Shown piece after piece: positions 35,914-54,269 of a DNA stretch of 64,000 nucleotides. The position numbers and the translations under genes were made by a program. Where the stretch lies: contig JBHLLU010000003.1 of assembly GCA_048938895.1 (NCBI GenBank), forward strand, positions 32,001-96,000, read 5' to 3'. The notes beneath the pieces are model-generated. The model was not told where the DNA came from and ran no database searches. It saw only the letters and a program-made list of their open reading frames with translations. Source of the stretch: Promethearchaeota archaeon. Lineage in GTDB: Archaea; Asgardarchaeota; Lokiarchaeia; Sigyniarchaeales; SOKP01. The stretch's first letter is position 1. Every line of letters starts with the position of its first letter.

Positions 35914-37185
35914 GTGATGAAAATTCCAAAGAAGAAGGAAAAACACAAAAAGAAAAAAGAAAAAGGTAAAAAGAAAGGAAAAATAGAATCAAAAAAACTA
36001 CAAAACCTTGTTGAGTGTGAATTTTGTGGTTATAAGATTATAAAACCCTTTCCAAAGGACAATTTTTGTCCTAAATGTAAGAAATTTTTGCCTGAATTAT
36101 ATGAACGGACAGCAGATCAATCCGTAAATGTTCAACCGAAAGAGTTTAAAACTCAAACTTCAACATTATCGTCAAAGTTTGGAGACAAAGTAAAGGTAAA
36201 AGAAAAACCTTTGACTGTCTCATTCGAAAGTGATACAATCGAATTATCTAAAGGAGAATACGTAAAATTACTCGGAATTACTTCAGTTGACAGAACTGAG
36301 CTATACTGTAGCAACGATAATTATATTTACTTATTAGAATTGACAAATAATCTCGATTTCATAGCAACTGGTATTTTAGAGGGTGAACTTGACAAAATGT
36401 TATTGATTTCTGAAGAAAATGTAGAAGAAAAATGTCAGTTTTATGTGAAAGATGAGATAATATATTTGGTTTATGGTATATTTCCAGATAAAAAAGGCAA
36501 ATGGATACTTGAACAAATGTCAAATAATTTCTCAGAATTAATAAAAGGTAAAGATGCTAACGACCTCGATAAACTCGATAAATATGAGATTGAGAGAGAA
36601 TTTGAAAAACGAATAAATTATATTTTGAAAGAATATCTAACACTACAAGAAGTATTTTCAGATCAAGATTTACCTTATGTAGAAGATTCTATTCGTATAG
36701 ACTATATTGGTCTCTCTTCAATGTCAATTGGTGTTATTTCATTATTAATTGGAGAGGATTTAAATATAGAACTACAAATTAAAGTTGACACCCCTGAAGA
36801 AGAGAAGGAAATGAAAGAATCTATGCTTACAGCAAGGATAGAAGCTATTGCGGCAAACACACAAGGTAATACAGGGGCTATTCCTCGTTGGATTGCTGTT
36901 AAATTAGGTTTTCAAAATTATAGGTTCTTAACTTTTGAAAAATATCAAAATGATTATTATCTTTCCTTATTATCAGAGGGCAATTTACATAAACTTCCAA
37001 AAGTGGAAGAATTGTTAAAACCTGAAATTGATGCAGTAGTCAAGACACCTTTTTCGGGTAATCTAAGACCTTTTAACGAACTGAAGCAGCGCCTGGAAAA
37101 GCTTTTTTCAAAAAGAAGAAAATTTCCCCCATTTGAATTCGGAGATGAGGATATCGAGGGAAAAGAAAAAGAACCAGAAAAATAA
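35914..37185 (+). CDS. Lys-rich N-terminus + Zn ribbon + putative longin/roadblock-like domains, unknown function
   Basis: CEFCG..CPKC. Two segments have alpha/beta patterns resembling longin/roadblock folds (by-eye inference). Confidence 0.55.
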   Translation: MMKIPKKKEKHKKKKEKGKKKGKIESKKLQNLVECEFCGYKIIKPFPKDNFCPKCKKFLPELYERTADQSVNVQPKEFKTQTSTLSSKFGDKVKVKEKPLTVSFESDTIELSKGEYVKLLGITSVDRTELYCSNDNYIYLLELTNNLDFIATGILEGELDKMLLISEENVEEKCQFYVKDEIIYLVYGIFPDKKGKWILEQMSNNFSELIKGKDANDLDKLDKYEIEREFEKRINYILKEYLTLQEVFSDQDLPYVEDSIRIDYIGLSSMSIGVISLLIGEDLNIELQIKVDTPEEEKEMKESMLTARIEAIAANTQGNTGAIPRWIAVKLGFQNYRFLTFEKYQNDYYLSLLSEGNLHKLPKVEELLKPEIDAVVKTPFSGNLRPFNELKQRLEKLFSKRRKFPPFEFGDEDIEGKEKEPEK

Positions 37186-37303: not shown

Positions 37304-38266
37304 ATGAAATATACTCCTGAAAAAATTTGGCAAGAATTTGAAACTAATAGTATCAGTTTACTAACTGCTACAGAATTATTAGTATCCATCATTGAAAATA
37401 GTAATGAAAGTGAGATTAGGGTAAATGCAATAAGTACTTTAGCCAAAATTATTTCAGGAGGAGTAAAAATGTATAAAATTTTAGAGAATTTGGTTGTTTC
37501 AGAAGAAAATGTTAAAGTTAGGATGATTGCCATAAATTATGTCGGTAAAATCTTTTTGTACAGAGCTTTACCACTATTGAGTTGGGCTATTAAACATGAA
37601 AGTGATTATAATTGCCAAATTGAAATAGTAAAATTATTAGGGTCTATAAATGTGCAAGAATCCAAATTATTATTATATAGAGAGATTCAGAAATTCATTA
37701 AAAAAAGATATATAAATAAAGACAGAAAGATTGAAAACAGAAAGTTCAAAAATGTATTAAGAATTTTACTGAAAGAAAAGGATTTTGAAGATTTCACTAA
37801 TGATGAGTTAGCTAAAATTCTAATAAACATTTTAGTTATTTCTCAGTTATTCACAGAATATAACAATATCTATTATGAATTAAATCGACAAAATGGGTTG
37901 ATTGAGAAGCTAGATTTATCTGATATGGAATATGAAGTTAAAGGAACACCATCAGGTTGGAAAAATAACATCAAATCTCTCTCTGATATCCCTGGAATTA
38001 ATTTTTTACATTCATTAAGTTATCTTGATCTTTCTAATAATGAAATTATCAATATTGGAGAACTAAACTTTTTACCAAATTTAACTCATCTCATTTTAAA
38101 AAACAATAAATTAAGCAGAAAAGAAAATCTTGAATACTTTAAACATCTAGCCCATCTCGAACACTTAGATTTAAGGGGTAATGAAATAGTTAAATACGTT
38201 CATAAAAATAACTTTAATCCAAACGTCAGAATTCTTTTAAGAGATCAAGATAAAGAGATAAAATAA
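37304..38266 (+). CDS. HEAT-like N-terminal domain + short LRR protein (third paralog)
   Basis: TPEKIWQ..ATELLVSIIENS..LENLVVSEENVKVR..WAIKHE; 3-4 C-terminal LRRs. Confidence 0.85.
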   Translation: MKYTPEKIWQEFETNSISLLTATELLVSIIENSNESEIRVNAISTLAKIISGGVKMYKILENLVVSEENVKVRMIAINYVGKIFLYRALPLLSWAIKHESDYNCQIEIVKLLGSINVQESKLLLYREIQKFIKKRYINKDRKIENRKFKNVLRILLKEKDFEDFTNDELAKILINILVISQLFTEYNNIYYELNRQNGLIEKLDLSDMEYEVKGTPSGWKNNIKSLSDIPGINFLHSLSYLDLSNNEIINIGELNFLPNLTHLILKNNKLSRKENLEYFKHLAHLEHLDLRGNEIVKYVHKNNFNPNVRILLRDQDKEIK

Positions 38267-38275
38267 AAAAAAAGA

Positions 38276-39607
38276 TTAATCTTCTATTAATTGGGTTTTA
38301 CCACTACCCCATACACCAAGCGCAATTCCTAATTCCTTTTGTTCTTTAGCAACCTGTTTTACATTTTTACCCTGCATCACAGCATCAATCGCTTGTCTAA
38401 ATGCTTTTGCTCCTGATATTGGTCCATCAGGATGACTATGAATACCTCCACCACTCCCTATTAGAATATCATTACCCGCTTCTTTCATACATTTTTCAAC
38501 CATACCTGGCGTAATTCCTCCACTTGGCATTGGTAATGTTGGTCTAATGTGTTGAAGCGGAAATCGAAGAGCTTTGAGGTTTTGTTCGTATCTCTCATCC
38601 AATATTTCAGCTTTTCCATAAGGTGCAGGGATTACAACGGTGTCAGCACCACAAATTCTTGGCAACTTAGCAAATGTTAGCATACTAGTTATCCCTGTCC
38701 ACTCGCCCCCGAAGTATGTTCCTCCAAAATCCATATGACCTAAAATAGGTACTTTTATTGAAGGATCTTCAGCAATCTGTCTTAATGCTTCAAATCCAGT
38801 TGTTAAATAGTTGATCATCAAAGCATTAGCACCTAATTCTATCATTTTATCGGCGTATTCGAACATTTCTGGGAACTTGGTAGTAATATTTATAGTATAT
38901 AAAGTTTTTTCTCCTTTTTCTGAGTCTGCTTTATCAACAGCTTCCATTACTTTTACAATCCTCTCTTCTAATCGATTAAAGGAAGGATCTGATATTAATT
39001 CATCATCTTTTACAACATCACAACCCCCAACAGCAGCTTGATATACTAAATCTGCTGCAACATCAGCAGTATGACCTGTACATGGTTTTACCATATTATT
39101 TAACAAAGGTCGTTCTGGGACATTCAGTAGTTTTCTTAATCCATCAATTCCAAACTTAGGTCCTTTATATTCTTCTAACCAAGCCTTTGGGAATGCAAGA
39201 TCTACTAATTTCAATCCATGGGTAATACTAATATTTCCAATGACACTTGAAAGTAACATTGGTATCCCCATTCCTTTGATATTTATAACGGGGAACCCGA
39301 TTTGTACAAAATATATTCTCTCCTTTAAATCCTTAGGGACAACATATTCAAAATGGGGTAGTTCGTACACTCCTAACACTCTTGCCACATGATGTTTTCT
39401 AACTTCTTCGGTCTCAGCAGGAACTCGTACCCAAGTTCCTGTTGATTGCTCTATTGCTGCAAATCTCGAAAGGTAGTTAACATTTTGTCCTTTTGGGCGT
39501 TTAATGATATAACTTGCAATTACATACTTTTCCAAGTCAATTCCATCTAATCCAATGGCTTCTGGAGTATCTAAATATTTTTCACAGCTAGGAAATATTT
39601 CATCCAT
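38276..39607 (-). CDS. RuBisCO-like protein (form IV)
   Basis: EQSTGTW, GPKFGIDG, DVVKDDE, PSGG and GSGGGIHSHPDG are present, but KPC replaces KPK and HM replaces HR. Likely start is ATG 39607. Confidence 0.85.
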   Translation of the reverse strand: MDEIFPSCEKYLDTPEAIGLDGIDLEKYVIASYIIKRPKGQNVNYLSRFAAIEQSTGTWVRVPAETEEVRKHHVARVLGVYELPHFEYVVPKDLKERIYFVQIGFPVINIKGMGIPMLLSSVIGNISITHGLKLVDLAFPKAWLEEYKGPKFGIDGLRKLLNVPERPLLNNMVKPCTGHTADVAADLVYQAAVGGCDVVKDDELISDPSFNRLEERIVKVMEAVDKADSEKGEKTLYTINITTKFPEMFEYADKMIELGANALMINYLTTGFEALRQIAEDPSIKVPILGHMDFGGTYFGGEWTGITSMLTFAKLPRICGADTVVIPAPYGKAEILDERYEQNLKALRFPLQHIRPTLPMPSGGITPGMVEKCMKEAGNDILIGSGGGIHSHPDGPISGAKAFRQAIDAVMQGKNVKQVAKEQKELGIALGVWGSGKTQLIED

Positions 39608-39724
39608 TATTTTCACATAATTATATTGATTGTATTTGGTGAAAATAATATTGATCAATTCAAAAATTCTTTGATATAATAGGAAAAGTGAAATAAAAAA
39701 AAATGAAATAATTATAAAAATAAA

Positions 39725-40840: not shown

Positions 40841-43800
40841 TTAATCAATCCCTCCTTTAGATTCTTTATATGATTCTGCGGATTCCGATAGAGACTTCTT
40901 TTTCTTACTTTCAATTCCTAGAACATCTCGCATTGATAATCCAAGCAGATCCCATCTATCGCCTAACTGTCTCACCATATATTCTTCTTTTGAAGGATAG
41001 AGTAGTGATTCTGAAATTGTTTTTCTACCCTTGATATCCTTCTTCATCTTTCTTGCTTTCTTAACGAATTTGGGAATCCTAGCTTGCTGGATAGTCCTAT
41101 ATATCGCTAAACTCGCCGTCACTGCAACAACCGCTCCTAAAATCATCAACAAGTAAAAAGTTGGGAAACCAAAAGTTTCATGCATATTAACCACAATAGT
41201 TAATGTTGTAGTAACTGTAGAGAAATTTGGTTTTTCAATTGTAAGCGTTGCAGTATAAGTTGCAGGTACAAAGAATGCATCAGGAATCTTATCAACCTTA
41301 ACTGTGTAAGTTCCATCACCATTAGGAGTGAAATCATAGTCTTCTCCCCTAAATGTTATGTAAACATCTGCTCCTGTTACGGCTACTGAACCATTATTCG
41401 GATCTGTAATTGTTATAGTGAACTCTAATGATTTTCCTGAATCTACTTCAGTTTTAGTCCCCTTAAATTCAGCTGGTAAACTGTAACCAAATACTCTTTT
41501 GTTAATAGTTAAAGATATTATAGCTATTCGATGTTCATAATTCATTTTGTTTAATGTCACAATAACTGAATATTCCCCATCTTCACGTGTTTCTGTATTA
41601 ATGTCTAATACAAAATCGTGACTACTAGTTTCGAAAAGAGTGCCAATTTCTGTAGTACCTGGAATTGGAACTCCAAATTCATCAAGTTTCTGTAAAATAT
41701 AACTTTGTTCATCCAAGTTTGAGATCTTGCTTGATGTGAAAACATCTTCATAGGTAAAAGTGAAATTTATCGCTTCAAAAATGAAAATATTCTCAGAATC
41801 ATATAATATTCCAGATTCTCCGTTAATTTCTGTGGGTCTGGATATAATTTCTATATACATCCCAAAATCTTCAATTTGAGTATAGTTTTCAAGCTTAACT
41901 GTTATGTCAATTCTATATTTACCAACATTAGTTGCATCTGAAGTATCAATTTCAAAAGTATAATATCCCGGTGAAGGACCTGGACTTAACAAACCGGAAC
42001 CGTAATCCCAATCATATATAAATGATTCAGGAGTTAAAGCTGAATTAGTTCCAGTGTCAAAAAATCTGGCCGTAATATTGATAGTAAAACCATAGTATTC
42101 GGAGATTTCATAATCTCCCCCTGTATTTTTAGATAATTCTGACAATGTTGTGTAGTCATGCAATGTTAATCCTGTTGGTTTAGCAAATACAGTGATCCCA
42201 AAATATTCTTCATCTGGATCATTCCAGAATGGCTTATACCCCCTTATAAGTACATAATAGAAATCGCTTTCATATCCTGCTGAGACAATACTGGAGTTTA
42301 CTGTAACAGTAAAATTTCCAGTAGGACCTGGTGCTTGGATCATTGATTTTTCAAACAATGCTACCCCATATTTAGAATAAATAGTCCAAGTTGCTGATGT
42401 GGCAAAACCGTTTCGATTCCAATCACCAATCCAAGATTGACCACTATCATCAGATGTTTCATAAACAAGCGAGAATGACATATTTTGGCCCCAGACAACG
42501 GAAGAAACACCTTGAACGTTTGTAAAATTGGCTATTCGCTGTGTAAAGTTTAAATCCAAGAAAAACACTAATAAAGCGGCTTGTGTTAGACTATAATTAT
42601 AGTAAGGAGTGATGCTCCCTGGCTTTCCTTTATCGGAAGTATTTACAATAAAGGTTTGTGGTTGATTCACTATCCAGAGTGTGAAGTTGTACGCTTGTCC
42701 TGTTAAATACCAAAATCCAAAATCTGTAGTATAAGCCCCATGGGCATATCCAGAGGTGTCCGTTTCCATTTCTATCACATCTTGTGAGGTATTATTCAAT
42801 TGGACTTTCACAGTTACTCCAGTAACGCTTTCTGTCCCTGTATTATCCATAACTCTTATATCTAACTTTGCCATGGTTGTTACTATGAATTCATAGTAAA
42901 TCTGTGGTGGTCCTAAATTAATGACTGTATTAGAACTTAATGGAGTAGGATCACTGTAATAATCAGGATTATCATAATATACTGTATAATTATAACTAGA
43001 TGAAGATATCCAACGGAACGTTGCTTCACCGTTAATATCCAAAGGAATTGTATCTATCACAGGAATACTACTATTACCTACTTCTACATATCCATAATTT
43101 AAAGGATCACCATCAACATCATCCACTTCAAAATCAATTGTCCAAAGATTAACTGTAATATTGGTTGTAATAAATAAACCTTCAAATTCGACTTCACCTC
43201 CAGGACCACTTCTACTATCATATACAATTCTTTCATCTAATCCATTATAGAGTGTATAATTGACTGTTATATTGTAGGAACCGAATGGTACTTTTAAAAA
43301 CTCGACTGAACCATCAGTTAAAGTAAATTTTGTGTATGTAGTACTATCGAGAGTAAGAATATGAGTATTATTTTCCCATAGAGAAACTTCAGCTCCAGGT
43401 ACTAATCTATCATCCTCATCTTTAATGATAATTGTAACTGTAGCCGCACGCTCAACCTCGCTTTGTAACGCTATATCTAAAGTATAATAATTTGCTAACC
43501 ATTCAATTTCATTAGCTGAAAGAGCATAATCAAAGTACCTAACATCGTCTAATAATCCTTGGAAATATTGGTTATTTCTTCCTCCATTAAACGAAGTTGC
43601 TTCTGAACCATCCCCAATAAACCCAAATCTAGTTTCTGAAATGTCTCCTATAGGGAGTCCATTCCAAGCGTCTTTTTGATTATCAAATATTCCGTCTACA
43701 TAAATCTTTTTATCAAATTCTTGGGAATAATCGAAAGTTATAACACAATGATGCCATTCAGCTGGAACATCTTCATCAATTAATGTTAATCCATTAAAGT

Positions 43801-44722
43801 CATCAATACCTCCTACATCATTAGCAGAATCAAATTCAACATGACCATCAGTAGCCATATATCCTGGTTCCCCAGCTGCAAAAGTCATATATTCTGATCT
43901 GTCAAAATCTAATATTGACCATCCGCCTTGATTTAAAGATATCTTTACCCAAGCGGAGGCAGTAAATTCATAAACAGGACCCGTTAATGTTGTAAGAATA
44001 TAATCAGGATCTGCTCCGTTGTAATTAAAAGACATATTTAAGGCAATATATTCATTTGAACCATCCATCGAAATGGCATAATTCCCTTCTAGTTCAGGAG
44101 TTGCAACGAAATCAACATCTTCCATATTGAACATGGTTCCATGGTATAAATTACCCATGGAATCATACACTCTATTCCCAGATCCCTCTTCAAATTCCCA
44201 TCTAGCAATTCCAGCAGGACAATTACTCATATAATAATTTGCCGCTTGACCAATAGTACTATTGCCATAATATAAATATGTATCATAATCAGTTGTACCT
44301 GCTGTGGAATTTACCTCAAACCAGACAGTTGCCCAATCATCACTAGGGAAGTCTTTTTTGATATAATACCTCCTTACTACATCATTTTCTACTATTCTTA
44401 TATCATCTAAATCTTCCTGTAAGTGTCCTGCATTATATAAATTCTTCCAGTTAATCTCAATTTTTACGATATTATCTTCCAAATTAAATGTTCCGGGATT
44501 TGTAATATTAATGCATTGTCTCCATTGAAAAGACACATTCCACCATGGATCTTCACCAATACCATTATTTAACATGGGTAGAATTGGTTTTTCTTGTTCT
44601 TTAGCTTTATCAATTTTCTCTTGCATATTCGGGACCAATGGAATAACAAATAATATAGAACTTATTGTCAGCGTCAGTAACAGTGTTGTTGCGAACTTAT
44701 GTTTAAACATTGTACTTTTCAT
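40841..44722 (-). CDS. Large single-pass cell-surface protein A (DUF2341-like, LamG/ConA-like, Ig-like repeats, TM, cytoplasmic tail)
   Basis: N-terminal hydrophobic signal; WWNVSFQWRQCINITN..YLYYGN; RWEFEEGSG..WHHCVITFD..IYVDG..GLLDDVRYFDYALS; C-terminal TM then an ~80 aa basic tail. Confidence 0.8.
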   Translation of the reverse strand: MKSTMFKHKFATTLLLTLTISSILFVIPLVPNMQEKIDKAKEQEKPILPMLNNGIGEDPWWNVSFQWRQCINITNPGTFNLEDNIVKIEINWKNLYNAGHLQEDLDDIRIVENDVVRRYYIKKDFPSDDWATVWFEVNSTAGTTDYDTYLYYGNSTIGQAANYYMSNCPAGIARWEFEEGSGNRVYDSMGNLYHGTMFNMEDVDFVATPELEGNYAISMDGSNEYIALNMSFNYNGADPDYILTTLTGPVYEFTASAWVKISLNQGGWSILDFDRSEYMTFAAGEPGYMATDGHVEFDSANDVGGIDDFNGLTLIDEDVPAEWHHCVITFDYSQEFDKKIYVDGIFDNQKDAWNGLPIGDISETRFGFIGDGSEATSFNGGRNNQYFQGLLDDVRYFDYALSANEIEWLANYYTLDIALQSEVERAATVTIIIKDEDDRLVPGAEVSLWENNTHILTLDSTTYTKFTLTDGSVEFLKVPFGSYNITVNYTLYNGLDERIVYDSRSGPGGEVEFEGLFITTNITVNLWTIDFEVDDVDGDPLNYGYVEVGNSSIPVIDTIPLDINGEATFRWISSSSYNYTVYYDNPDYYSDPTPLSSNTVINLGPPQIYYEFIVTTMAKLDIRVMDNTGTESVTGVTVKVQLNNTSQDVIEMETDTSGYAHGAYTTDFGFWYLTGQAYNFTLWIVNQPQTFIVNTSDKGKPGSITPYYNYSLTQAALLVFFLDLNFTQRIANFTNVQGVSSVVWGQNMSFSLVYETSDDSGQSWIGDWNRNGFATSATWTIYSKYGVALFEKSMIQAPGPTGNFTVTVNSSIVSAGYESDFYYVLIRGYKPFWNDPDEEYFGITVFAKPTGLTLHDYTTLSELSKNTGGDYEISEYYGFTINITARFFDTGTNSALTPESFIYDWDYGSGLLSPGPSPGYYTFEIDTSDATNVGKYRIDITVKLENYTQIEDFGMYIEIISRPTEINGESGILYDSENIFIFEAINFTFTYEDVFTSSKISNLDEQSYILQKLDEFGVPIPGTTEIGTLFETSSHDFVLDINTETREDGEYSVIVTLNKMNYEHRIAIISLTINKRVFGYSLPAEFKGTKTEVDSGKSLEFTITITDPNNGSVAVTGADVYITFRGEDYDFTPNGDGTYTVKVDKIPDAFFVPATYTATLTIEKPNFSTVTTTLTIVVNMHETFGFPTFYLLMILGAVVAVTASLAIYRTIQQARIPKFVKKARKMKKDIKGRKTISESLLYPSKEEYMVRQLGDRWDLLGLSMRDVLGIESKKKKSLSESAESYKESKGGID

Positions 44723-45184
44723 TTCATATCAATTTTTTTAGTAATTACTTTTTTTAAAAATAGGTTTTCATAAATAATACCAATTCTTGTATTTATTTTT
44801 TTATCTATCAAAATTAATTTGGCATAACAAATTCAAAATCGTCAATAAACGCAACAGAATAGAGCAATAGATCGTGTTCAAAATAATTTTTAAACTTTTG
44901 TTGTTTTACATAATTTTATTAGTTTTTTGATTAAAAAAGGTAATTCCTAAGGTAATATTGTTATCAAAAAAATTATACTTTTCTTGTATAGAGAAAAAGG
45001 GATATTTTTAAAATGAAATTTATAATTCAATAATTACTTTCATCTTCCATATCGCACGTTCTTTAAATCCTAAAAATTTAAATAATTTAATTTAGATTGT
45101 AGATTCAAATAAAAGTTTCAAACTTTTTCATTTATTAATTTAATTCTTAAGATTCGTCTTTTTAATTGTAAGAAGGTATTGTAT

Positions 45185-46225
45185 ATGCTAAGGCAAGTCT
45201 ATATTTTGAAAGAAGGGAACATATTATATAACAAAAATTTTGGAAAATCTCTTTCAATTGAAGATTTCCAAAAGCATATTCAAGAGATTGTTGAAGAGAC
45301 CGAAAAAGGAACAAATTTAGATAGTTATGATTATTTCAAGTATAAAATTGTATATTCTCAAGTAGAAAATGAGGATTTAATGTTTACTTTCGTAACAGAT
45401 ATAAATGATGATGTTAGAAGATCGAAAGAAGAATTAAATAAATTAAAGAAAGAATTTTTAGATACTTTTGGTGATAATTTAGATGGTTTGGATCCAGTAC
45501 TTATGGAGATACTAGCTCCAATTATAGACACCATACATAGAAATCTTAAAACAAAAATATCCTTAGTTGGGTTTTCTGGAGTTGGGAAGACCACCACAAC
45601 GAATCTCATCTGTGCTGATGAAATCCCTTCTGTTCACATCCCTACTATCACGGGGAAAATCTCTACAGTTAAGATTGGCAAGTTATATTTCCATTTATGG
45701 GATTTTGCTGGACAAGAACAGTTTAGTTATCTTTGGAATGATTTTATCCTTGGTAGCGATGCTGTACTTATAATTACAGATTCTACATTAGAAAATGTAG
45801 AAAAAAGTAAATTTTTTATTGAGTTAATAAAGGAACACGCTCCTTATGCTCATACTGCGGTAATAGGTAATAAACAAGATCTGCCTGATGCATTATCTAT
45901 AGAAAAAATCCAAGAGATATCGGGAGTGAAAACATATTCAATGGTAGCAATCGATCCCAACAACAGAGACAAGATGATACAAATTGTAGCAGATATTTTA
46001 GAAATCAACACAGATGTATCTCCATTGTTGAAACCATTATTTGAAAGAGATCAACTTATAAATAAAGCTAGAGAATGTTTGGAAGGTGGTGATATAGCCC
46101 AAACCGCCGAATATTTTGAGAAGATATCAGATCTCTGCCTTGAATTAGGAGATGATACGCTATATAAGGAGTTTGATGAGAAAGCAAGAAAACTCAAGAG
46201 CTATTTAACAAAGAATGAAAATTAA
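45185..46225 (+). CDS. Small GTPase (Arf/Rab-like) with N-terminal longin-like domain and C-terminal helical domain
   Basis: G1 GFSGVGKTT, G2 PTI, G3 WDFAGQE, G4 NKQD; N-terminal VYILKEGNILYNKNF longin pattern. The track starts at TTG 45179. Confidence 0.85.
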   Translation: MLRQVYILKEGNILYNKNFGKSLSIEDFQKHIQEIVEETEKGTNLDSYDYFKYKIVYSQVENEDLMFTFVTDINDDVRRSKEELNKLKKEFLDTFGDNLDGLDPVLMEILAPIIDTIHRNLKTKISLVGFSGVGKTTTTNLICADEIPSVHIPTITGKISTVKIGKLYFHLWDFAGQEQFSYLWNDFILGSDAVLIITDSTLENVEKSKFFIELIKEHAPYAHTAVIGNKQDLPDALSIEKIQEISGVKTYSMVAIDPNNRDKMIQIVADILEINTDVSPLLKPLFERDQLINKARECLEGGDIAQTAEYFEKISDLCLELGDDTLYKEFDEKARKLKSYLTKNEN

Positions 46226-46264
46226 TAATTATAGGTAAAAATAAAATAAAAAAAATAAAAAAAA

Positions 46265-47377
46265 TTATCCTTCTTTCTCTTCTTCTACTTTAATTTCAGC
46301 AGGATGATATGCTTCATCTAGTACATTAAGATACTCTATTAACACTTCACTTGATTTCGATTTCACTTCATACTGATATATTATGGTGTTTAACATATAT
46401 TTAGGATACAGTAAAGAGCTATGGAAATCCGTGAGAAGAGCATAGTATTCTGTTCCTTTTGGATCTTGAAAAACGTGTATCATTTGATTTTCCCATAACT
46501 TCTTTAATCCCGCATCGATATCATCAACCCCTTTTTTCCTAAGTTTCTCTAAGACGTTTTTTGTGACAATAGATATTCTAAGTAATTTTAAAATTTCATA
46601 TACTTGAGGATCTGCAATTATATCATCTAATACTTTCAGATTATCTTCATCTGATGGTCGATATTTTTGAAAGAATTTCTTGACTGCCACATTATAATCT
46701 TCTCTAAATTTTTCAGGAAGTCCTCTTTCAGTAGGATTTTTAAGTAAGGATATGGGAGGTCTCCGAATCATGAATATATCATTAGTGAGAAAAATTAATT
46801 CAGAAGGCATCCCCTTGACTGATGCTTCTTTTATGATGTCCTTTTTGATTAATTCCATAAGAATCGCATCTACATCGAAAAATCCTTCCCGATATCGGTC
46901 TTTTAACCAAATGTTCAATTCCGACTTAGAGATCACGCCTTCATCTCTTAATCTTTTAATAATCAACCTATTTACATCATCAAGGTATGTAATTGCCAAA
47001 TTTTGTTCCCTATTTAAATAGGGATAAGTTGATAGTCTCTGAAATAAGAAGGGGATCATTTCTAAGTATGCCTTATCTTCAAAGTTTTGAAATATCACAC
47101 GTGAAATGTCAGCCAATCCACCTTCGAAGGTATCTGCATCTTCATCTAAGTTAAGAAGTAAGATAATATAGAGAGGTTTATCTCTTCCGGTATAATATGA
47201 AGCAATATTTAGAGGACCCACAAGCAAACTTATCATTCCCGGTTCTCCTGTATACTCATGTGCAGCATATATTTGCATTAATGTTTCTTCACTGATTACT
47301 AATTCATCTGGATATTTTGCAAGGATTTCTGTACTTACTTTAATATCCCATCTCATTAATACTAATCCAATTGGCAT
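46265..47377 (-). CDS. Longin/uDENN-like + tandem winged-helix-like protein, paralog B
   Basis: Colinear and highly similar to 39725-40840 (e.g. LNIASYYTG, IIKRLRDEGV, KEASVKGMPSELIFL, YYALL); TAATG overlap with the upstream gene. Confidence 0.6.
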   Translation of the reverse strand: MPIGLVLMRWDIKVSTEILAKYPDELVISEETLMQIYAAHEYTGEPGMISLLVGPLNIASYYTGRDKPLYIILLLNLDEDADTFEGGLADISRVIFQNFEDKAYLEMIPFLFQRLSTYPYLNREQNLAITYLDDVNRLIIKRLRDEGVISKSELNIWLKDRYREGFFDVDAILMELIKKDIIKEASVKGMPSELIFLTNDIFMIRRPPISLLKNPTERGLPEKFREDYNVAVKKFFQKYRPSDEDNLKVLDDIIADPQVYEILKLLRISIVTKNVLEKLRKKGVDDIDAGLKKLWENQMIHVFQDPKGTEYYALLTDFHSSLLYPKYMLNTIIYQYEVKSKSSEVLIEYLNVLDEAYHPAEIKVEEEKEG

Positions 47378-50300
47378 TAGAACTCTTCACCTCCATTTTT
47401 ATCAATGTTTTTCCCTATCGGTGATTTCTGAGTTTTTGAATCAGCGATTCCTAAAGTTTCATTAAGAGACAGCCCAAGTTCTTTCCAATCATCCCCAAAT
47501 AACTTTGTTATCATCTCTTCTTTAGTAGGAATTGAGAGGGACGCTGGAATTTTCTTCTTTGATTTTATATAACCTTTGATTTTCCTGATTTTCTTTATAT
47601 GTTTAGGAATTCTTGCCTGTTGTATGACCCTGTATGCGACAACACTTCCCACTACTCCAACGATAGCTGCGGTTATTAGAATAAAGTAGAATGTTGGCAT
47701 TCCTGGAAAAATTTCTTCCATCTTCACTACAACTGTTATTGTTATTTCTTGAGTTGTAAAATTTACCATTTCGATAGTCATTTTACCTACAAGAGTTTTG
47801 GATGTGATAAAAGTATCAATATGAGAAGTTGAAATAGTCGCTGTATATATTCCTGACGAAATCTCTGTAAATGGGAAATCAACACCACCTATGTTTAAAA
47901 CGACTTGAGCACTCTCTAAATTAATACTTCCTCGACTAAGGTCTAATAAATTTACTTCAATTTCAGCATCATCTCCTTGATTAACGCTTATATGATTGTT
48001 ACTTCCTAAACCTGTTATAGAAACATCAAATTCTCTTAACTTAATTTTTAAGTTTACAAGGGCAGCTCTAGCTTCATAATTATCCTTTTGAAGATTAACA
48101 TATAGGTAATAAAAACCAACATTTTTAACTTCAGTATTAAAATCTAAAGAATAAGTTCCATCAGGGTTTTCATATAATAATCCAAAACCATCTTTTCCTT
48201 GCTTAATCGTCCCATTATTATATAATTCTTGCCATGTATAAATTGCAACATCTAAATCCCGTAAAAGCTGATTTCCTCCTAAAGTATCAGTGTAAGAGTA
48301 TGTAAAGATTTCAGTATCTTCAACCCATAATTCCACTGTATTATAAGCTAAATCTGTAGTTCCATTAATTGCTGTTGGTCTTTCAACGATATCGAGAAAA
48401 GTTATTATTGTTTGAGATGTAAAATTTTCTCTTGATGCTGTAATAGTTATTGGGTATTTACCAACATTTATAGCTAAGGATGTATCAATCGCACAAGAGT
48501 AGAATCCAGGATATACAAGATCTTTACTAAAATATATGGATGGTTGACTGAGCCAATCAAAAGAAACTGTTGCACCATCTAATGGATCATTTGGGGCTAT
48601 ATAAAATCTCACAGTGATATTAATAATTTCAGTAAATTCTTTTTTATATTCGGATATTACTAGGCGTGTTTCATAATCATATAAGTTTAAGAATGTTGCA
48701 GCTGCATTTACTTGTACTTGTTGATAATAATTTTCTGGGGGTTCATATCCTGGAATACTTCCATCAACTATAAACCAATATTTCTTAAAATCATTCCCTG
48801 CGGACAATTTACTTGAATTAAGAGTAAGAGAATAATTTTTTAGAACCATTCCTTGATAATTTGGTGTTAAATCTGCTGTTAGTACTACCTTCCCTGTCTC
48901 CCAATCTTCTACATAACAAATGAAAGATCCTTCATCAGGAACAAGATTCCAAATACTACCATCAGTTGTATATGATATATTGATAGTCATATGCAAGTCC
49001 CCAATACCCCAAATTGCCTGAGAAATGTCTGTGATCAATTCGATTTGAGTTTCAATTGTAGGTGGTGGAGGAGCCTCTTCATAATCAAGAATAATTGAAG
49101 ATTCTTTGGTCAACGTATAATTGTATATAGAAATTGTTCCAAAAGGCTCCCATTGTTTTGGGGATGTTTCATTAATTTTGAAATCAACGGAATTACCAAT
49201 TCTTCGAAGTGTTATATTATAGCTATATCCAATTAGAAAAATAAATGGTTTATAGGTTTCATCATCATGAGAAGCCCATCCATCATCATTAGTAGTCAAA
49301 GTTGTAATTAAGTTTGTTCCATTCCAAATTTTAACACTAACAAAAGGAACTGGATCAAATGAATAAGCATCGTCAATTACTCTAATATTCATTTTAGCCA
49401 ACGCGTTCTTATTATATATGTTGGTTAATTCTGTTGTGTTGACTTTGATCAAACCAGTGTGTCCACCAACACGATATCCTTGTATATCAACTAAAATCCC
49501 ATATACATCATAATTTTCTGCTTTAAGTTCATCATTATCAATAGTACCAATATCAAATGATTTGAAAAAATCTGTACTTGACATAGTGAGATTTTGATAA
49601 ATTACATTATTTATTGTTTGGTTGTTTTTATCAATATAGTAAATTGTCATATTATCTATTCGATCTTGCATATTTTCAAGTGTTATATTGAAATTAACCA
49701 ATTTTTTATGACTAAATTCATCCATCGATCCCCCTGTATAGATTCGTTCATAAACCCTATAATAATTTCCAGGATCTTGGTCATAGGTATTAAGCGGTAA
49801 AGCATGATCATAATATTTCTCGTTTTGTACGTAATTAGTTCGGTAAATGAAACTTGAATTCAAAAGGAAATCATTGATACTATATTTTGTATTATAAAAA
49901 TAAACTTCATAATAGTAAAATGATGCATTGTTCCATTGAAACCTTGCGGTCCCATTAACTAGAGAAATCTTTTTCAAAAGAGTCCCTTCCTTATCATCAA
50001 AAATTTTAATATATCCATCACCTAAAAGATCATCATCCCAATCTACTATCTCAAAATCTATCGTCCAAATATCTACATCTAAAATAAACGTGTGAGATAA
50101 ATCAGATACATTATATAAATTCCATTTAGACGTCCCAAAATTATCTCTTGTACTATTGAATACTACATTTTCATAGCTGGGAGTAAATATATAATCCACA
50201 GTGAAATTATATATCCCAAAATTTAGATTTGTAAAAATAGTTTTTCCAGATTCATCTGTAGTTTGCTGTTTTATAATATTACTGTCTTGTACTAGTGATA

Positions 50301-51711
50301 CTTTAGCATTTGACACAATTCTGCCATCAATATCTCTTACAATGATGGTTATGTCAGATTTTTGTGACTGAACTTCATTTAATACAACGATTATTTCATC
50401 ATTATAAGTAAATTCAACATCATCTATTTGGGCAAATCCAGTATCATAATTCCCAGCTGCTGAATTTTCATCTCCATACATTCCAATCTCTAATGAGATA
50501 TTTTGGCCCATATAATTACTGAGATCAAAAGTTACAAATCCAGTTAATTCCCCTATATCAGTATCGAATGTTCCAGTTGTTGATGCTCCACCAAGAGTAT
50601 AATTTTGTAATGAGTATCCTCCCTTATTATTATGAGTAATTCCTTTAAAATACTCTAAATACTCACCATTTTGTTGGTGTAGATCAGGATCAACTGGTAT
50701 ACTAGGTGTAGCATTAATAACTCTAACAAAATATCCATCATTCCAAGCTTTACTCTCGCTTCCATCAAATCCCCATATTCTTACATTTTGCCAAAGTTTC
50801 AGAAAAATTTTACCACTACCATCATTTACAACTGGAACGACAAAAGGATCTGTATATAAAACTCCAGCAAATTGGTCATCATTACCAACAGTGTCAGTTA
50901 TAGAAGTCTGATTAGAACCCCATTTGTATGTATATGTTCCTCTTACTTGTACATCACCAGCAGGAGTGTCAACCAAACAATTTTGCCACCATTCAGTTGC
51001 TTGATCTTCTGTCTGTGAATCTTCTCCCACTAATGGAAGTCTAGGGGCGATATCATCGGGTACGTCATCAGACCATGTCCAACCCACAGGGTTATAATAA
51101 TGAGGAACAGATGAAGGATCTCCTGTTGGGTCATCTCCACTAGGGACATATTCAAAAGCTCCATTCTTAACTAATCCAAGACCATATTCTACTGCCGTAC
51201 TTTCTACATTCATATTACCAAAATATATATATGTATCAATCTGAGGATTGCTAGAAGATGTAAGATTTGTATTGAAATATATTGTTGCTTTGCCTGGTGA
51301 GGATACAAAACCATCAAAATCCTGAAAAATAAAAAAATCTCTCTCAAAAGGCTCATTATTTTTATATTCAATGACTCTAATATCTTTTAATGTGTCGTTT
51401 ACTTTATTTAGATACTCACCACTCCCATAAGATATGACTACACTAACACCATAGTTATCTAATTTAACCCCTGCTTGATTTGTTATGTTAATTAATGTCC
51501 TATAGGGCCAATTTGAATCCCACCAAGGATGAACACCTGAACTACTTAGCTCTAGGTCAATATCCTCTATACTATCTTCCACTGTTGTGTCATAAAAGGT
51601 TCCAGTAGAGGAGAAATTCATTAGATAGACTGGAAAAAGTATCATCAACAATAATATTGAAAGACATGCCGCTTTTTTTAATCTTAGTGCTCTTTTATGT
51701 CTAACTATCAT
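47377..51711 (-). CDS. Large single-pass cell-surface protein B (DUF2341-like, jelly-roll/CBM-like, Ig-like repeats, TM, cytoplasmic tail)
   Basis: WWDSNWPYRTLINITN..YIYFGN; LVKNGAFE..FDLSNYMGQNISLEI..IDDVEF; TM and tail homologous to protein A. Likely start is ATG 51711 (MIVRHKR + hydrophobic signal); the track gives 51864. Confidence 0.8.
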   Translation of the reverse strand: MIVRHKRALRLKKAACLSILLLMILFPVYLMNFSSTGTFYDTTVEDSIEDIDLELSSSGVHPWWDSNWPYRTLINITNQAGVKLDNYGVSVVISYGSGEYLNKVNDTLKDIRVIEYKNNEPFERDFFIFQDFDGFVSSPGKATIYFNTNLTSSSNPQIDTYIYFGNMNVESTAVEYGLGLVKNGAFEYVPSGDDPTGDPSSVPHYYNPVGWTWSDDVPDDIAPRLPLVGEDSQTEDQATEWWQNCLVDTPAGDVQVRGTYTYKWGSNQTSITDTVGNDDQFAGVLYTDPFVVPVVNDGSGKIFLKLWQNVRIWGFDGSESKAWNDGYFVRVINATPSIPVDPDLHQQNGEYLEYFKGITHNNKGGYSLQNYTLGGASTTGTFDTDIGELTGFVTFDLSNYMGQNISLEIGMYGDENSAAGNYDTGFAQIDDVEFTYNDEIIVVLNEVQSQKSDITIIVRDIDGRIVSNAKVSLVQDSNIIKQQTTDESGKTIFTNLNFGIYNFTVDYIFTPSYENVVFNSTRDNFGTSKWNLYNVSDLSHTFILDVDIWTIDFEIVDWDDDLLGDGYIKIFDDKEGTLLKKISLVNGTARFQWNNASFYYYEVYFYNTKYSINDFLLNSSFIYRTNYVQNEKYYDHALPLNTYDQDPGNYYRVYERIYTGGSMDEFSHKKLVNFNITLENMQDRIDNMTIYYIDKNNQTINNVIYQNLTMSSTDFFKSFDIGTIDNDELKAENYDVYGILVDIQGYRVGGHTGLIKVNTTELTNIYNKNALAKMNIRVIDDAYSFDPVPFVSVKIWNGTNLITTLTTNDDGWASHDDETYKPFIFLIGYSYNITLRRIGNSVDFKINETSPKQWEPFGTISIYNYTLTKESSIILDYEEAPPPPTIETQIELITDISQAIWGIGDLHMTINISYTTDGSIWNLVPDEGSFICYVEDWETGKVVLTADLTPNYQGMVLKNYSLTLNSSKLSAGNDFKKYWFIVDGSIPGYEPPENYYQQVQVNAAATFLNLYDYETRLVISEYKKEFTEIINITVRFYIAPNDPLDGATVSFDWLSQPSIYFSKDLVYPGFYSCAIDTSLAINVGKYPITITASRENFTSQTIITFLDIVERPTAINGTTDLAYNTVELWVEDTEIFTYSYTDTLGGNQLLRDLDVAIYTWQELYNNGTIKQGKDGFGLLYENPDGTYSLDFNTEVKNVGFYYLYVNLQKDNYEARAALVNLKIKLREFDVSITGLGSNNHISVNQGDDAEIEVNLLDLSRGSINLESAQVVLNIGGVDFPFTEISSGIYTATISTSHIDTFITSKTLVGKMTIEMVNFTTQEITITVVVKMEEIFPGMPTFYFILITAAIVGVVGSVVAYRVIQQARIPKHIKKIRKIKGYIKSKKKIPASLSIPTKEEMITKLFGDDWKELGLSLNETLGIADSKTQKSPIGKNIDKNGGEEF

Positions 51712-53330: not shown

Positions 53331-54269
53331 TTATTGAATAATCTGTAATATTAAATTTTCCATTTGAGGTTTAGCTGCTTCGATTTTATCCAAAATTGTT
53401 ACTGTCTTTTGTAAATCTTCATCCTCATCAATAATGAAGAGTAAGAAAAAGTCAATATTACCAAATTTGAGTACTTCAATAACGCCAGAAAATCGTTCCC
53501 CATTGTCAAAAACATCAGAAAATTCATATAGAGTTCTGTTCTCTGCAACGACGCGTTTTTGAAGTTCTAAATAAATTCCGTAAATTTTAATCTTTTGCAT
53601 TAATTGTAGGTGTGGTCGATAATGCTCTCCAAGTGTTATTCCTTTAGAATCGAATAACGAAATTAGAATTGTATTATAATTTTTACTAATTTCCGCAAAT
53701 AAATTAGAAACCATTTCGATTTTTTCGAAAAGCATTGATAATCCGCTAGAAAATGCATCCATGATGGATTTGATATCAAAGATTGTCGTTTCAAAGAAGA
53801 AGATACTAAAATCGTTTGAATATCTTGTTAAAGCTTGTTTTAAAGTAAGGATTCTTTTATTTATCTCTACGTCATCTACAAGTTGAGGATCGAATTTATG
53901 AAAAAGAATTGCAACCATTACATCTTCTTGATGCTCTTTGAAAAACAATAATATCTCTTCTAAATAATCTATTGATTCAATGTACCTATCAAAATCTTGA
54001 GCATCAATAACGTAAAAAATCAAGTCTATCCCACTCAAAAATTTCTCGGGATGCTTCAAATAATCCTCCCGATAGATTCGCTGACCACCAAAATCTAATC
54101 TTGAAAATTCTAATCCCAAAAATCTAAAGGTATCTCGGGCAATTCTTCTCGTTGGCATTAATTTTGCTACTTCTTCTTCAAATCCAAACCGTTTTGTTAT
54201 TGCTGTTATTATACTGGTCTTACCTGCATTATCGAGACCTATGAAAGCTAGCTTCTTAAAAAGAATCAC
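53331..54269 (-). CDS. Rag/Gtr-like small GTPase with C-terminal roadblock-like domain
   Basis: G1 GLDNAGKTS, G3 DFGGQ, G4 HKFD, G5 ETTIFD (HKxD and TxIxD are Rag-type). C-terminal ILISLFDSKGITLG roadblock pattern; GTG start. Confidence 0.8.
   Translation of the reverse strand: MILFKKLAFIGLDNAGKTSIITAITKRFGFEEEVAKLMPTRRIARDTFRFLGLEFSRLDFGGQRIYREDYLKHPEKFLSGIDLIFYVIDAQDFDRYIESIDYLEEILLFFKEHQEDVMVAILFHKFDPQLVDDVEINKRILTLKQALTRYSNDFSIFFFETTIFDIKSIMDAFSSGLSMLFEKIEMVSNLFAEISKNYNTILISLFDSKGITLGEHYRPHLQLMQKIKIYGIYLELQKRVVAENRTLYEFSDVFDNGERFSGVIEVLKFGNIDFFLLFIIDEDEDLQKTVTILDKIEAAKPQMENLILQIIQ

Follow-up and report, generated by a model that had tools for sequence, protein, structure and literature searches.

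Plexins and other single-pass receptors carry an inner part that regulates GTPases, and in longins that act as GTPase-activating proteins (GAPs) the arginine finger is placed in the loop between strands 4 and 5. The GAP hallmarks of the NPRL2, FLCN and SMCR8 longins are set out in the available part of one study (PMC12290439), and in Asgard archaea a longin with a small C-terminal domain has been described in most Thor and a few Loki genomes, together with many NPRL2-like longin fusions (10.1101/2020.10.19.343400, as far as its accessible text goes). The accessible portion of another report gives Ca. Lokiarchaeum ossiferum unordered surface densities, long protrusions and a single membrane with no ordered S-layer (PMC9834061). 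Here we analyse a 64,000-nucleotide stretch of a Promethearchaeota archaeon (GenBank assembly GCA_048938895.1, contig JBHLLU010000003.1, positions 32,001 to 96,000; hereafter the window) in which two genes for large surface proteins, A and B, are each followed by a gene for a predicted longin and winged-helix partner, LA and LB, with an Arf-like small GTPase gene between the two pairs (Table 1). We demonstrate the architecture and topology signals of these proteins, the coupling of the genes, fusions in both orders, co-occurrence, mosaic ectodomains and linkage to the GTPase gene. It is likely that the conserved C-terminal tail of A and B connects the cell surface to a small-GTPase switch, because each surface gene is coupled, and in sister genes fused, to one whose product has the predicted fold of GTPase regulators of eukaryotes. 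We propose, with moderate confidence, that the tail is a docking site for the partner at the membrane and that the docked partner serves a dedicated GTPase, which would give one output for many tips.

A and B are built on a common frame. A preliminary description of these genes proposed a shared order of parts with one module swapped, and the motifs it quoted are present in both open reading frames (ORFs): WTIDFEVD in A and WTIDFEIVD in B, FGFPTFY and PGMPTFY respectively, and both tail strings. By BLASTP, A residues 5-164, 417-588 and 617-1277 align to B (identity 33% in the N domain, 35% in the first Ig-like pair and 32% in the stalk), the one slot between them (A165-416, B228-491) does not, and the shared order thus stands. 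The tails do align closely, with 35/64 residues identical (55%) in the core and a score of 170 against a maximum of 51 over 500 shuffles. Topology prediction, which had been suggested as a check, gives type I with a single transmembrane (TM) segment, as judged from sequons (N-x-S/T) and from the distribution of Lys and Arg: A has 26 sequons before the TM and 0 in the tail, B has 30 outside and 1 in the tail, the density outside is 2.3 per 100 residues against 0.7 in the proteome, and the 25 residues after the TM hold 10-11 Lys or Arg in A and B. A tail in this position could be a sortase-type cleavage and lipid-anchoring signal of the PGF-CTERM kind, and IFPGF does precede the TM, followed by a basic stretch, in 33/91 relatives. 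This is very improbable, since no CTERM model in NCBIfam matches any of 16 proteins, no PF09721 exosortase/archaeosortase is found in this 98.7% complete genome (the control being positive in 1/14), 64 conserved residues or a 450-residue domain lie C-terminal to the TM, and the tail is also known without a TM. The case which the preliminary description held would undo its reading, a tail that is a mere cleavage or sorting signal with no link to the longin, is not what we find.

The tail is tied to its longin partner by abutting genes, fusions, co-occurrence and co-divergence. Each surface gene ends in Gly-Gly codons reading GGAGG, just 5' of the partner ATG; a terminal Gly-Gly is common in relatives, and a loose purine-rich pattern is present in 86/86 surface-partner junctions, with gaps of -1 to 3. 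Stop-codon read-through as a general mechanism was rejected: the stop of A is in frame with LA, yet 56/86 relatives have a -1 overlap. A profile of the tail alone finds 10 tails in 9 proteins of this genome (E<1e-10, next match 0.47), all linked to a partner; of these 9 proteins, 2 abut a partner, another is encoded 42 bp upstream of one, an array beside one comprises 3, and the remaining 3 are fusions with a partner. The three fused paralogs, on other contigs, hold tail and partner in one ORF; the genome bin has a contamination of 7.5%, and tail-partner fusion is also present in G132 (G denotes a genome, C a contig, L a locus and P a protein; f and g are family and genus labels of the genome set). 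Long partner homologs carry the tail in 104/104 cases, at a fixed 85-89 residues ahead of the partner start, and fusion is likely derived, because in a quick tree the 5 fused rows make up one clade (SH-like approximate likelihood ratio test 99) that arises from within the split pairs. In 3/143 representative homologs (P0321, P0412 and P0350) the order is reversed, the partner preceding the tail, and there is no TM; the tail of P0321 scores E 5e-10 and 36.8 bits against a shuffle maximum of 3.9. None of the 150 matches listed for P0321 (301 genomes) extends into its tail, and the reverse fusions may include assembly artefacts. By eye, P0418 and P0365 also look reversed.

The same association is seen across Asgard genomes. 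Of 93 tails in 74 loci, all abut a partner, a count biased by the choice of loci via the partner and with some loci shared with other samples of this analysis; 10 partners have no upstream tail, 5 of these at a locus edge. In a genome search of the kind that the preliminary description had recommended, the partner was found in 115/151 genomes of the phylum (some matches being weak, e.g. in f17) and the tail in 108/151, never without a partner, while the 33 genomes in 8 families that lack the partner also lack the tail. The tail reaches Odinarchaeum and Atabeyarchaeum (P0196 and P0194, named sources). In one class the partner is present in 2/70 genomes and the tail in 3/70, the two strong exceptions being adjacent pairs on one small contig each, and both are absent in 67/70. 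Judging from COX1 (above cut-off in 15/41 genomes of this class) and from known traits, the class is likely Heimdallarchaeia; a few proteins labelled Heimdall- or Hodarchaeota speak against such an absence, matching at 76-87%, an identity so close that it suggests mislabelled Loki bins. Over 400 pairs from 70 proteins, tail identity follows partner identity (Spearman 0.73-0.78) more than that of its own stalk (0.23-0.35), although stalk identity is near saturation, which lowers the stalk correlation; mean identities are 62% for the tail, 32-36% for the stalk and 75-79% for the partner. Candidate inter-chain covariation pairs (212 paired rows, effective 108) were dropped, as they came with no recognisable intra-protein contacts, and in an Atlas search the tail had no usable match and the partner matched unnamed clusters only.

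Some unusual arrangements of tails and partners were also recorded. At L004:1636-12182 (G000:C53) three tail-bearing surface genes point away from a distant partner, one of them with two TM-tail units, and a gene of 651-734 amino acids (aa) follows distant partners at L003:3914-5869 and L004:12213-14417, one with a TrmB-like helix-turn-helix. Two short f7 proteins, in L162 and L163 (open frames of 279 and 143 aa), have the tail motif and lie 5-6 kb from a distant partner, a clear TM being missing from one of them, and G177:C9:430000-465000 holds five tandem fused proteins of ~2660 aa each. The partner domain is also fused to SIR2+TPR, TIR, TPR or helix-hairpin-helix repeats (P0364, P0375, P0357, P0338, P0408, P0419 and P0425); SIR2 and TIR are common defence effectors.

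The LA model, built from 58 sequences, comprises a longin, two winged helices and C-terminal helices, and the two winged helices are homologous to each other (95.6% profile probability). Its top Foldseek match is a GATOR1 chain (E 8.3e-5), and the longin superimposes on GATOR1 with a Z of 12.3 and a root-mean-square deviation (rmsd) of 2.6 over 118 aligned residues; GATOR1 chains B and C are presumably NPRL2 and NPRL3. The winged helices could instead mark a DNA-binding transcription regulator that the tail sequesters at the membrane and releases on a signal, in an anti-sigma-like manner. In as many as 14/58 partners winged helix 2 is matched by Pfam models of the ArsR/TrmB/MarR type, and weakly by structures of this kind, and a TrmB-like gene follows one distant partner. 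Yet the helices that would recognise DNA are acidic, with a mean net charge of -1.3 and -0.8 (LA net -8), the partner is fused to a membrane protein in ~100 clusters, and the linkage to a GTPase would be left unexplained, all of which makes such a regulator improbable.

Homologs of the window GTPase are no more than 800 bp away from the partner at the loci of f8 (3/3), f19 (2/2), f12 (3/3), f15 (1/1) and f9 (1/1). They also neighbour the partner in one f13 locus and LB-type partners in six f1 loci. In all, a close homolog is present in 24/74 loci, a count limited by flank length. The window GTPase is the best match for 5/10 of those tested, among 22 GTPase homologs of this genome, and a profile comparison of its N-terminal domain with the partner longin gave no significant match (0.6% probability). 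A Rag-like GTPase (53331-54269 of the window, minus strand; PF04670 E 1.9e-23) lies 1.6 kb beyond B and is a second candidate client.

It is in the ectodomains that A and B part. The slot of A is a LamG domain (PF13385, 58.1 bits against a cut-off of 27.6). The preceding DUF2341 domain (PF10102) passes narrowly in A (25.6 against 23.4 bits) and is matched in the fused paralogs at E 7e-20 and 1e-17; B has no direct DUF2341 match in Pfam, and its assignment rests on A, the two N domains matching profile to profile at 99.95% probability. Between the slots themselves the alignment score is 18.0 for a shuffle mean of 17.9, the best BLAST E is 0.33 and the profile-profile probability is 0.6% (E 0.1). 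The slot of B has no Pfam match at E 0.05, PF13385 included, but a model of B108-500 from 31 sequences, with a mean predicted local distance difference test (pLDDT) score of 65 and poor slot loops, matches jelly rolls only, of carbohydrate-binding module (CBM), GH16, legume-lectin, MAM and reelin types with tied scores. Residues ~124-379 of this model are aligned by nearly all 50 structural (VIA) rows at Z 7.2-9.6, the top rows being tied within 1 Z across the jelly-roll types. The slots thus have no sequence relation and are predicted to share a fold class; since both are jelly rolls, a very old homology is conceivable. The modules had been called unrelated, which holds for sequence, though they are predicted to be alike in fold class, and the single variable module by which A and B were said to differ is accompanied by a second extra module in B (665-820) that is absent from A.

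As to the swap, the two slots could descend from a single ancestral jelly roll by divergence in place past recognition, with no replacement. The common fold class and the near-equal match of the B model to legume lectins, GH16 and CBMs (Z 8-9.6, tied) would suit this, as would the slot being the fastest-changing part within both the A type and the B type. We judge it unlikely, because the flanks keep 33-35% identity while the slot keeps none, even profile to profile, and because discordant trees independently show exchange between lineages. For B and 18 relatives, the TM-tail and partner trees mostly follow genus, whereas in the ectodomain tree B and two same-genus proteins join three g4 proteins and one g6 protein (support 1.0). 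The slot of B is 80-84% identical to those of the three g4 proteins, while in 6/8 same-genus relatives with partners 85-86% identical the slots are 27-30% identical. Around residues 1240-1300, identity between B and G065 drops from 60-87% to ~45-50%, and from the TM on, proteins of the same genus are the more similar ones; the drop and the discordant trees fit recombination in the membrane-proximal stalk, although sorting of old alleles is a possible cause of the discordance.

At the A locus, defined as partner then RuBisCO-like gene, the six closest relatives of A have partners 89-93%, RuBisCO-like proteins 92-96% and GTPases 87-90% identical, and slots that are 89, 69, 41, 41, 37 and 22% identical, with flanks often at 56-64% and tails at 73-88%. 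The 45 genes called complete (at least one, L261, perhaps cut) include N+LamG forms like A, distant N+LamG forms of ~1430 aa, a ~1220 aa type of which the single protein scanned has no Pfam LamG match, longer forms (1850-1900 aa), a 571-aa form, and two mini-genes of 143 and 147 aa that consist of hydrophobic segments and tail only. Partner-coupled mini-genes of 143-147 aa were recorded at L251:7570-8001, L266:7558-8001 and L047:14757-15200, in two types and two genera. No DNA repeats were found flanking the slots, so no site-specific cassette mechanism is seen. We also rejected the arrangement of A and B as a by-product of recent duplication, their ectodomains being 32-35% identical and the arrangement recurring across families. 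As read from these alignments and trees, relatives exchange both entire ectodomains and individual modules, family-wide and at fixed loci. The modular swap is therefore upheld as an exchange of ectodomains between lineages, not as a direct A-to-B swap. This quick turnover over a fixed tail would point to selection on recognition, of partners, viruses or surfaces.

The mechanism we propose would run as follows: 1) A and B are single-pass surface proteins with mosaic, variable outer parts; 2) the conserved tail would dock the co-encoded partner of predicted longin and winged-helix fold, packing on it near its two termini, a position suggested by how short the linkers are in fusions of either order; 3) the partner would keep a dedicated Arf-like GTPase in place at the membrane, at the site of contact between the tip, a likely glycan binder, and glycans or cells; 4) the partner would act on the GTPase, probably as a platform for docking or exchange, a GAP role of the GATOR1 type being less likely; and, 5) contact would cluster the complex and alter GTPase activity locally. 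Several observations weigh against this account. Over its full length the GATOR1 match has a TM-score of 0.24 and an rmsd of 22; the Foldseek match at E 8.3e-5 spans the length, the C-terminal parts are not superposable as a whole, and other longins come within 1-2 Z. At the GP motif before strand 2, Gly is present in 98/109 partners and Pro in 16/109, with GP in only 16/109 (GT in LA, ST in LB), and Arg is not among the four commonest residues in any of columns 64-71, the strand 4-5 loop, of the same 109 partners; Arg at column 13, in 49/109, is an alternative candidate finger. Because these GAP hallmarks (PMC12290439, in its available part) are not conserved, the partner is not assigned as NPRL2. 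No close GTPase lies beside the partner in f2, f3, f21 or f26 loci or in 4/5 f7 loci, here it adjoins LB only and not LA, and no partner-GTPase fusion was found among 143 representatives. Ectodomain-less mini-genes, 2/45 of the complete A-slot genes, indicate that the unit can persist without an input. Lastly, linkage speaks on both sides. In 15 hand-picked genomes, 34/61 tails have a partner no further than 8 kb away (~1 expected by chance), which favours the account; the figure leans upward because the profile was built from partner-linked tails and several of these genomes gave training rows, and kin are not independent. Linkage holds in f1 (13/13), f2 (8/8), f13 (5/5), f3 (2/3) and f29 (1/2) but for 5/12 only in f7 and for none of the 18 tails in f8 (0/3), f19 (0/4), f12 (0/8) and f30 (0/3); the unlinked tails retain the Pro-basic-helix pattern.

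These points lend themselves to the main rival, an inside-out anchor without a signal, in which the tail-docked partner, with or without the GTPase, only delivers, positions or clusters adhesins, as longin adaptors do with cargo tails. The mini-genes keep TM, tail and partner without an ectodomain, AP and COPI adaptor longins are among the fold matches (Z ~10-11), a single tail type is carried by proteins of very different kinds (500-5000 aa), whose genes are often remote from that of a partner, and the partner has no catalytic motif. On the other side, one partner copy per surface gene, tail-partner co-divergence and permanent fusions exceed the needs of a shared sorting adaptor, and a dileucine-type motif occurs in only 3/39 tails; we consider the anchor rather unlikely. 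The receptor family of the preliminary description, with different inputs and a common output, is borne out as a variable outside over a common inside, whereas inward signalling is what we infer, and the mini-genes fit a membrane anchor equally well. Returning to the docking mechanism, a tentative extension, possible if doubtful, is an old Asgard transmembrane signalling system in which a diversifying family of contact receptors with exchangeable lectin tips acts through one conserved tail on an NPRL2/3-related longin platform with its own Arf-like GTPase. If this were true, a prokaryote would have a pathway from receptor to small GTPase, which would be the ancestral job of the GATOR1-type scaffold, and the soluble forms with a tail would regulate this platform in a self-occupied state.

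Table 1. Features of the two surface protein-partner pairs and the intervening GTPase gene (window coordinates)
Feature	Position	Strand	Evidence
Surface protein A (1293 aa), with a hydrophobic N-terminal segment, a DUF2341-like domain, the LamG slot, an Ig-like stalk, a single TM and a tail of 85 aa	40841..44722	-	
A, DUF2341-like N domain, aa 55-165	44228..44560	-	
A, variable slot, aa 170-415, with LamG/ConA-like domain	43478..44215	-	PF13385 aa 249-406, E 1.4e-15
A, transmembrane helix, ~aa 1184-1207	41102..41173	-	Hydropathy; Lys/Arg 0 in 15 residues before, 11 in 25 after
A, conserved core of the tail (aa 1208-1271), with an invariant Pro, an amphipathic basic helix and a W-x-x-L-G-L segment	40910..41101	-	
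GGAGG in last codons (Gly-Gly) of A, likely ribosome-binding site for LA; then TAA, ATG, gap 0	40851..40855	-	
Partner LA (371 aa), predicted to consist of a longin (1-120), winged helices 1 (134-206) and 2 (256-322) and C-terminal helices	39725..40840	-	Model pLDDT 91
Arf-like small GTPase, 348 residues, with ~120-aa N-terminal domain (probably a longin); end 40 bp from LB	45179..46225	+	PF00025 E 1.7e-18; G1/G3/G4 motifs; linkage
Partner LB, 370 aa, 63% identity to LA; ATG overlaps stop of B (TAATG)	46265..47377	-	
Surface protein B, 1444 aa from M52; residue numbers follow the 1495-aa ORF from 51864	47377..51711	-	
B, DUF2341-like N domain, aa 108-227	51184..51543	-	
B, variable slot (aa 228-491) with a predicted jelly roll of CBM/lectin-like type	50392..51183	-	Model; no likeness to slot of A
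B, extra module, aa 665-820, not in A, found in many A-slot relatives	49405..49872	-	
B, transmembrane helix, ~aa 1386-1410	47635..47709	-	
B, conserved tail core, aa 1411-1474	47443..47634	-	

The start of B is most likely M52, downstream of the first codon of the listed ORF. Directly after LA lies a RuBisCO-like gene (38276-39658, minus strand), in an order kept in 45 loci, the product of which has as its top NCBIfam match a methylthiopentyl-phosphate enolase model, below cut-off; beside it, on the plus strand, are genes for a zinc-ribbon protein (35914-37185) and a HEAT+LRR protein (37304-38266). Scans for sigma-70 promoters and terminators gave chance-level results only. Named records of relatives of these genes are mostly Promethearchaeota/Promethearchaeia (Lokiarchaeia).

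No description of the tail-partner surface system was found in the open-access literature searched, and in the available text of 10.64898/2026.10.28.762692 the terms NPRL, GATOR, LamG and winged do not occur. The system is real, not described in the literature searched, and built of known parts in known eukaryotic logic. It ties together Asgard longins, small GTPases and surface-structure genes, and it is reducible to soluble parts of 64 residues (tail), 370 residues (partner) and 348 residues (GTPase). Its relevance to the origin of eukaryotes is tempered by its near-absence in one large class, probably Heimdallarchaeia.

The known proteins closest to the partner are NPRL2 and NPRL3 of GATOR1, which like it have an N-terminal longin and are its best fold matches, and a small-GTPase gene is the partner's neighbour. 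The spacing of W33-D34...G38 in C9orf72 equals that of W10-D11-x-x-x-G15 in the partner (PMC12290439, in its available part). Unlike NPRL2/NPRL3, FLCN-FNIP and C9orf72-SMCR8, the partner has no conserved GP or arginine finger and is tied to a surface protein, and its neighbour is Arf-like where the GATOR1 client is Rag. The NPRL2-like longins reported earlier are linked to two-component signalling domains, the accessible text being silent on surface proteins and on the tail (10.1101/2020.10.19.343400). The window GTPase matches the Arf-related Asgard GTPases (ArfR) in its G1/G3/G4 motifs and Arf-like G domain, but has a ~120-aa domain ahead of the G domain instead of the amphipathic helix that the ArfR type has at its N-terminus (10.1101/2024.02.28.582541, in the portion available). 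A and B resemble the LamG/DUF2341 and PGF-CTERM archaeal surface glycoproteins in their signal-like N-terminus, lectin-like and Ig-like domains, dense sequons and PGF-like motif before a C-terminal TM, and differ from them in having a long conserved tail, a dedicated partner and no sorting enzyme found. The family is a candidate for the surface structures of Ca. Lokiarchaeum ossiferum, to which the accessible part of that report ties no genes (PMC9834061). Although plexins share no domains with the fused Asgard form, which is known here without a catalytic domain, that form would follow a plexin-like logic, with a big ectodomain, one TM and a cytoplasmic module that we propose is aimed at a small GTPase.

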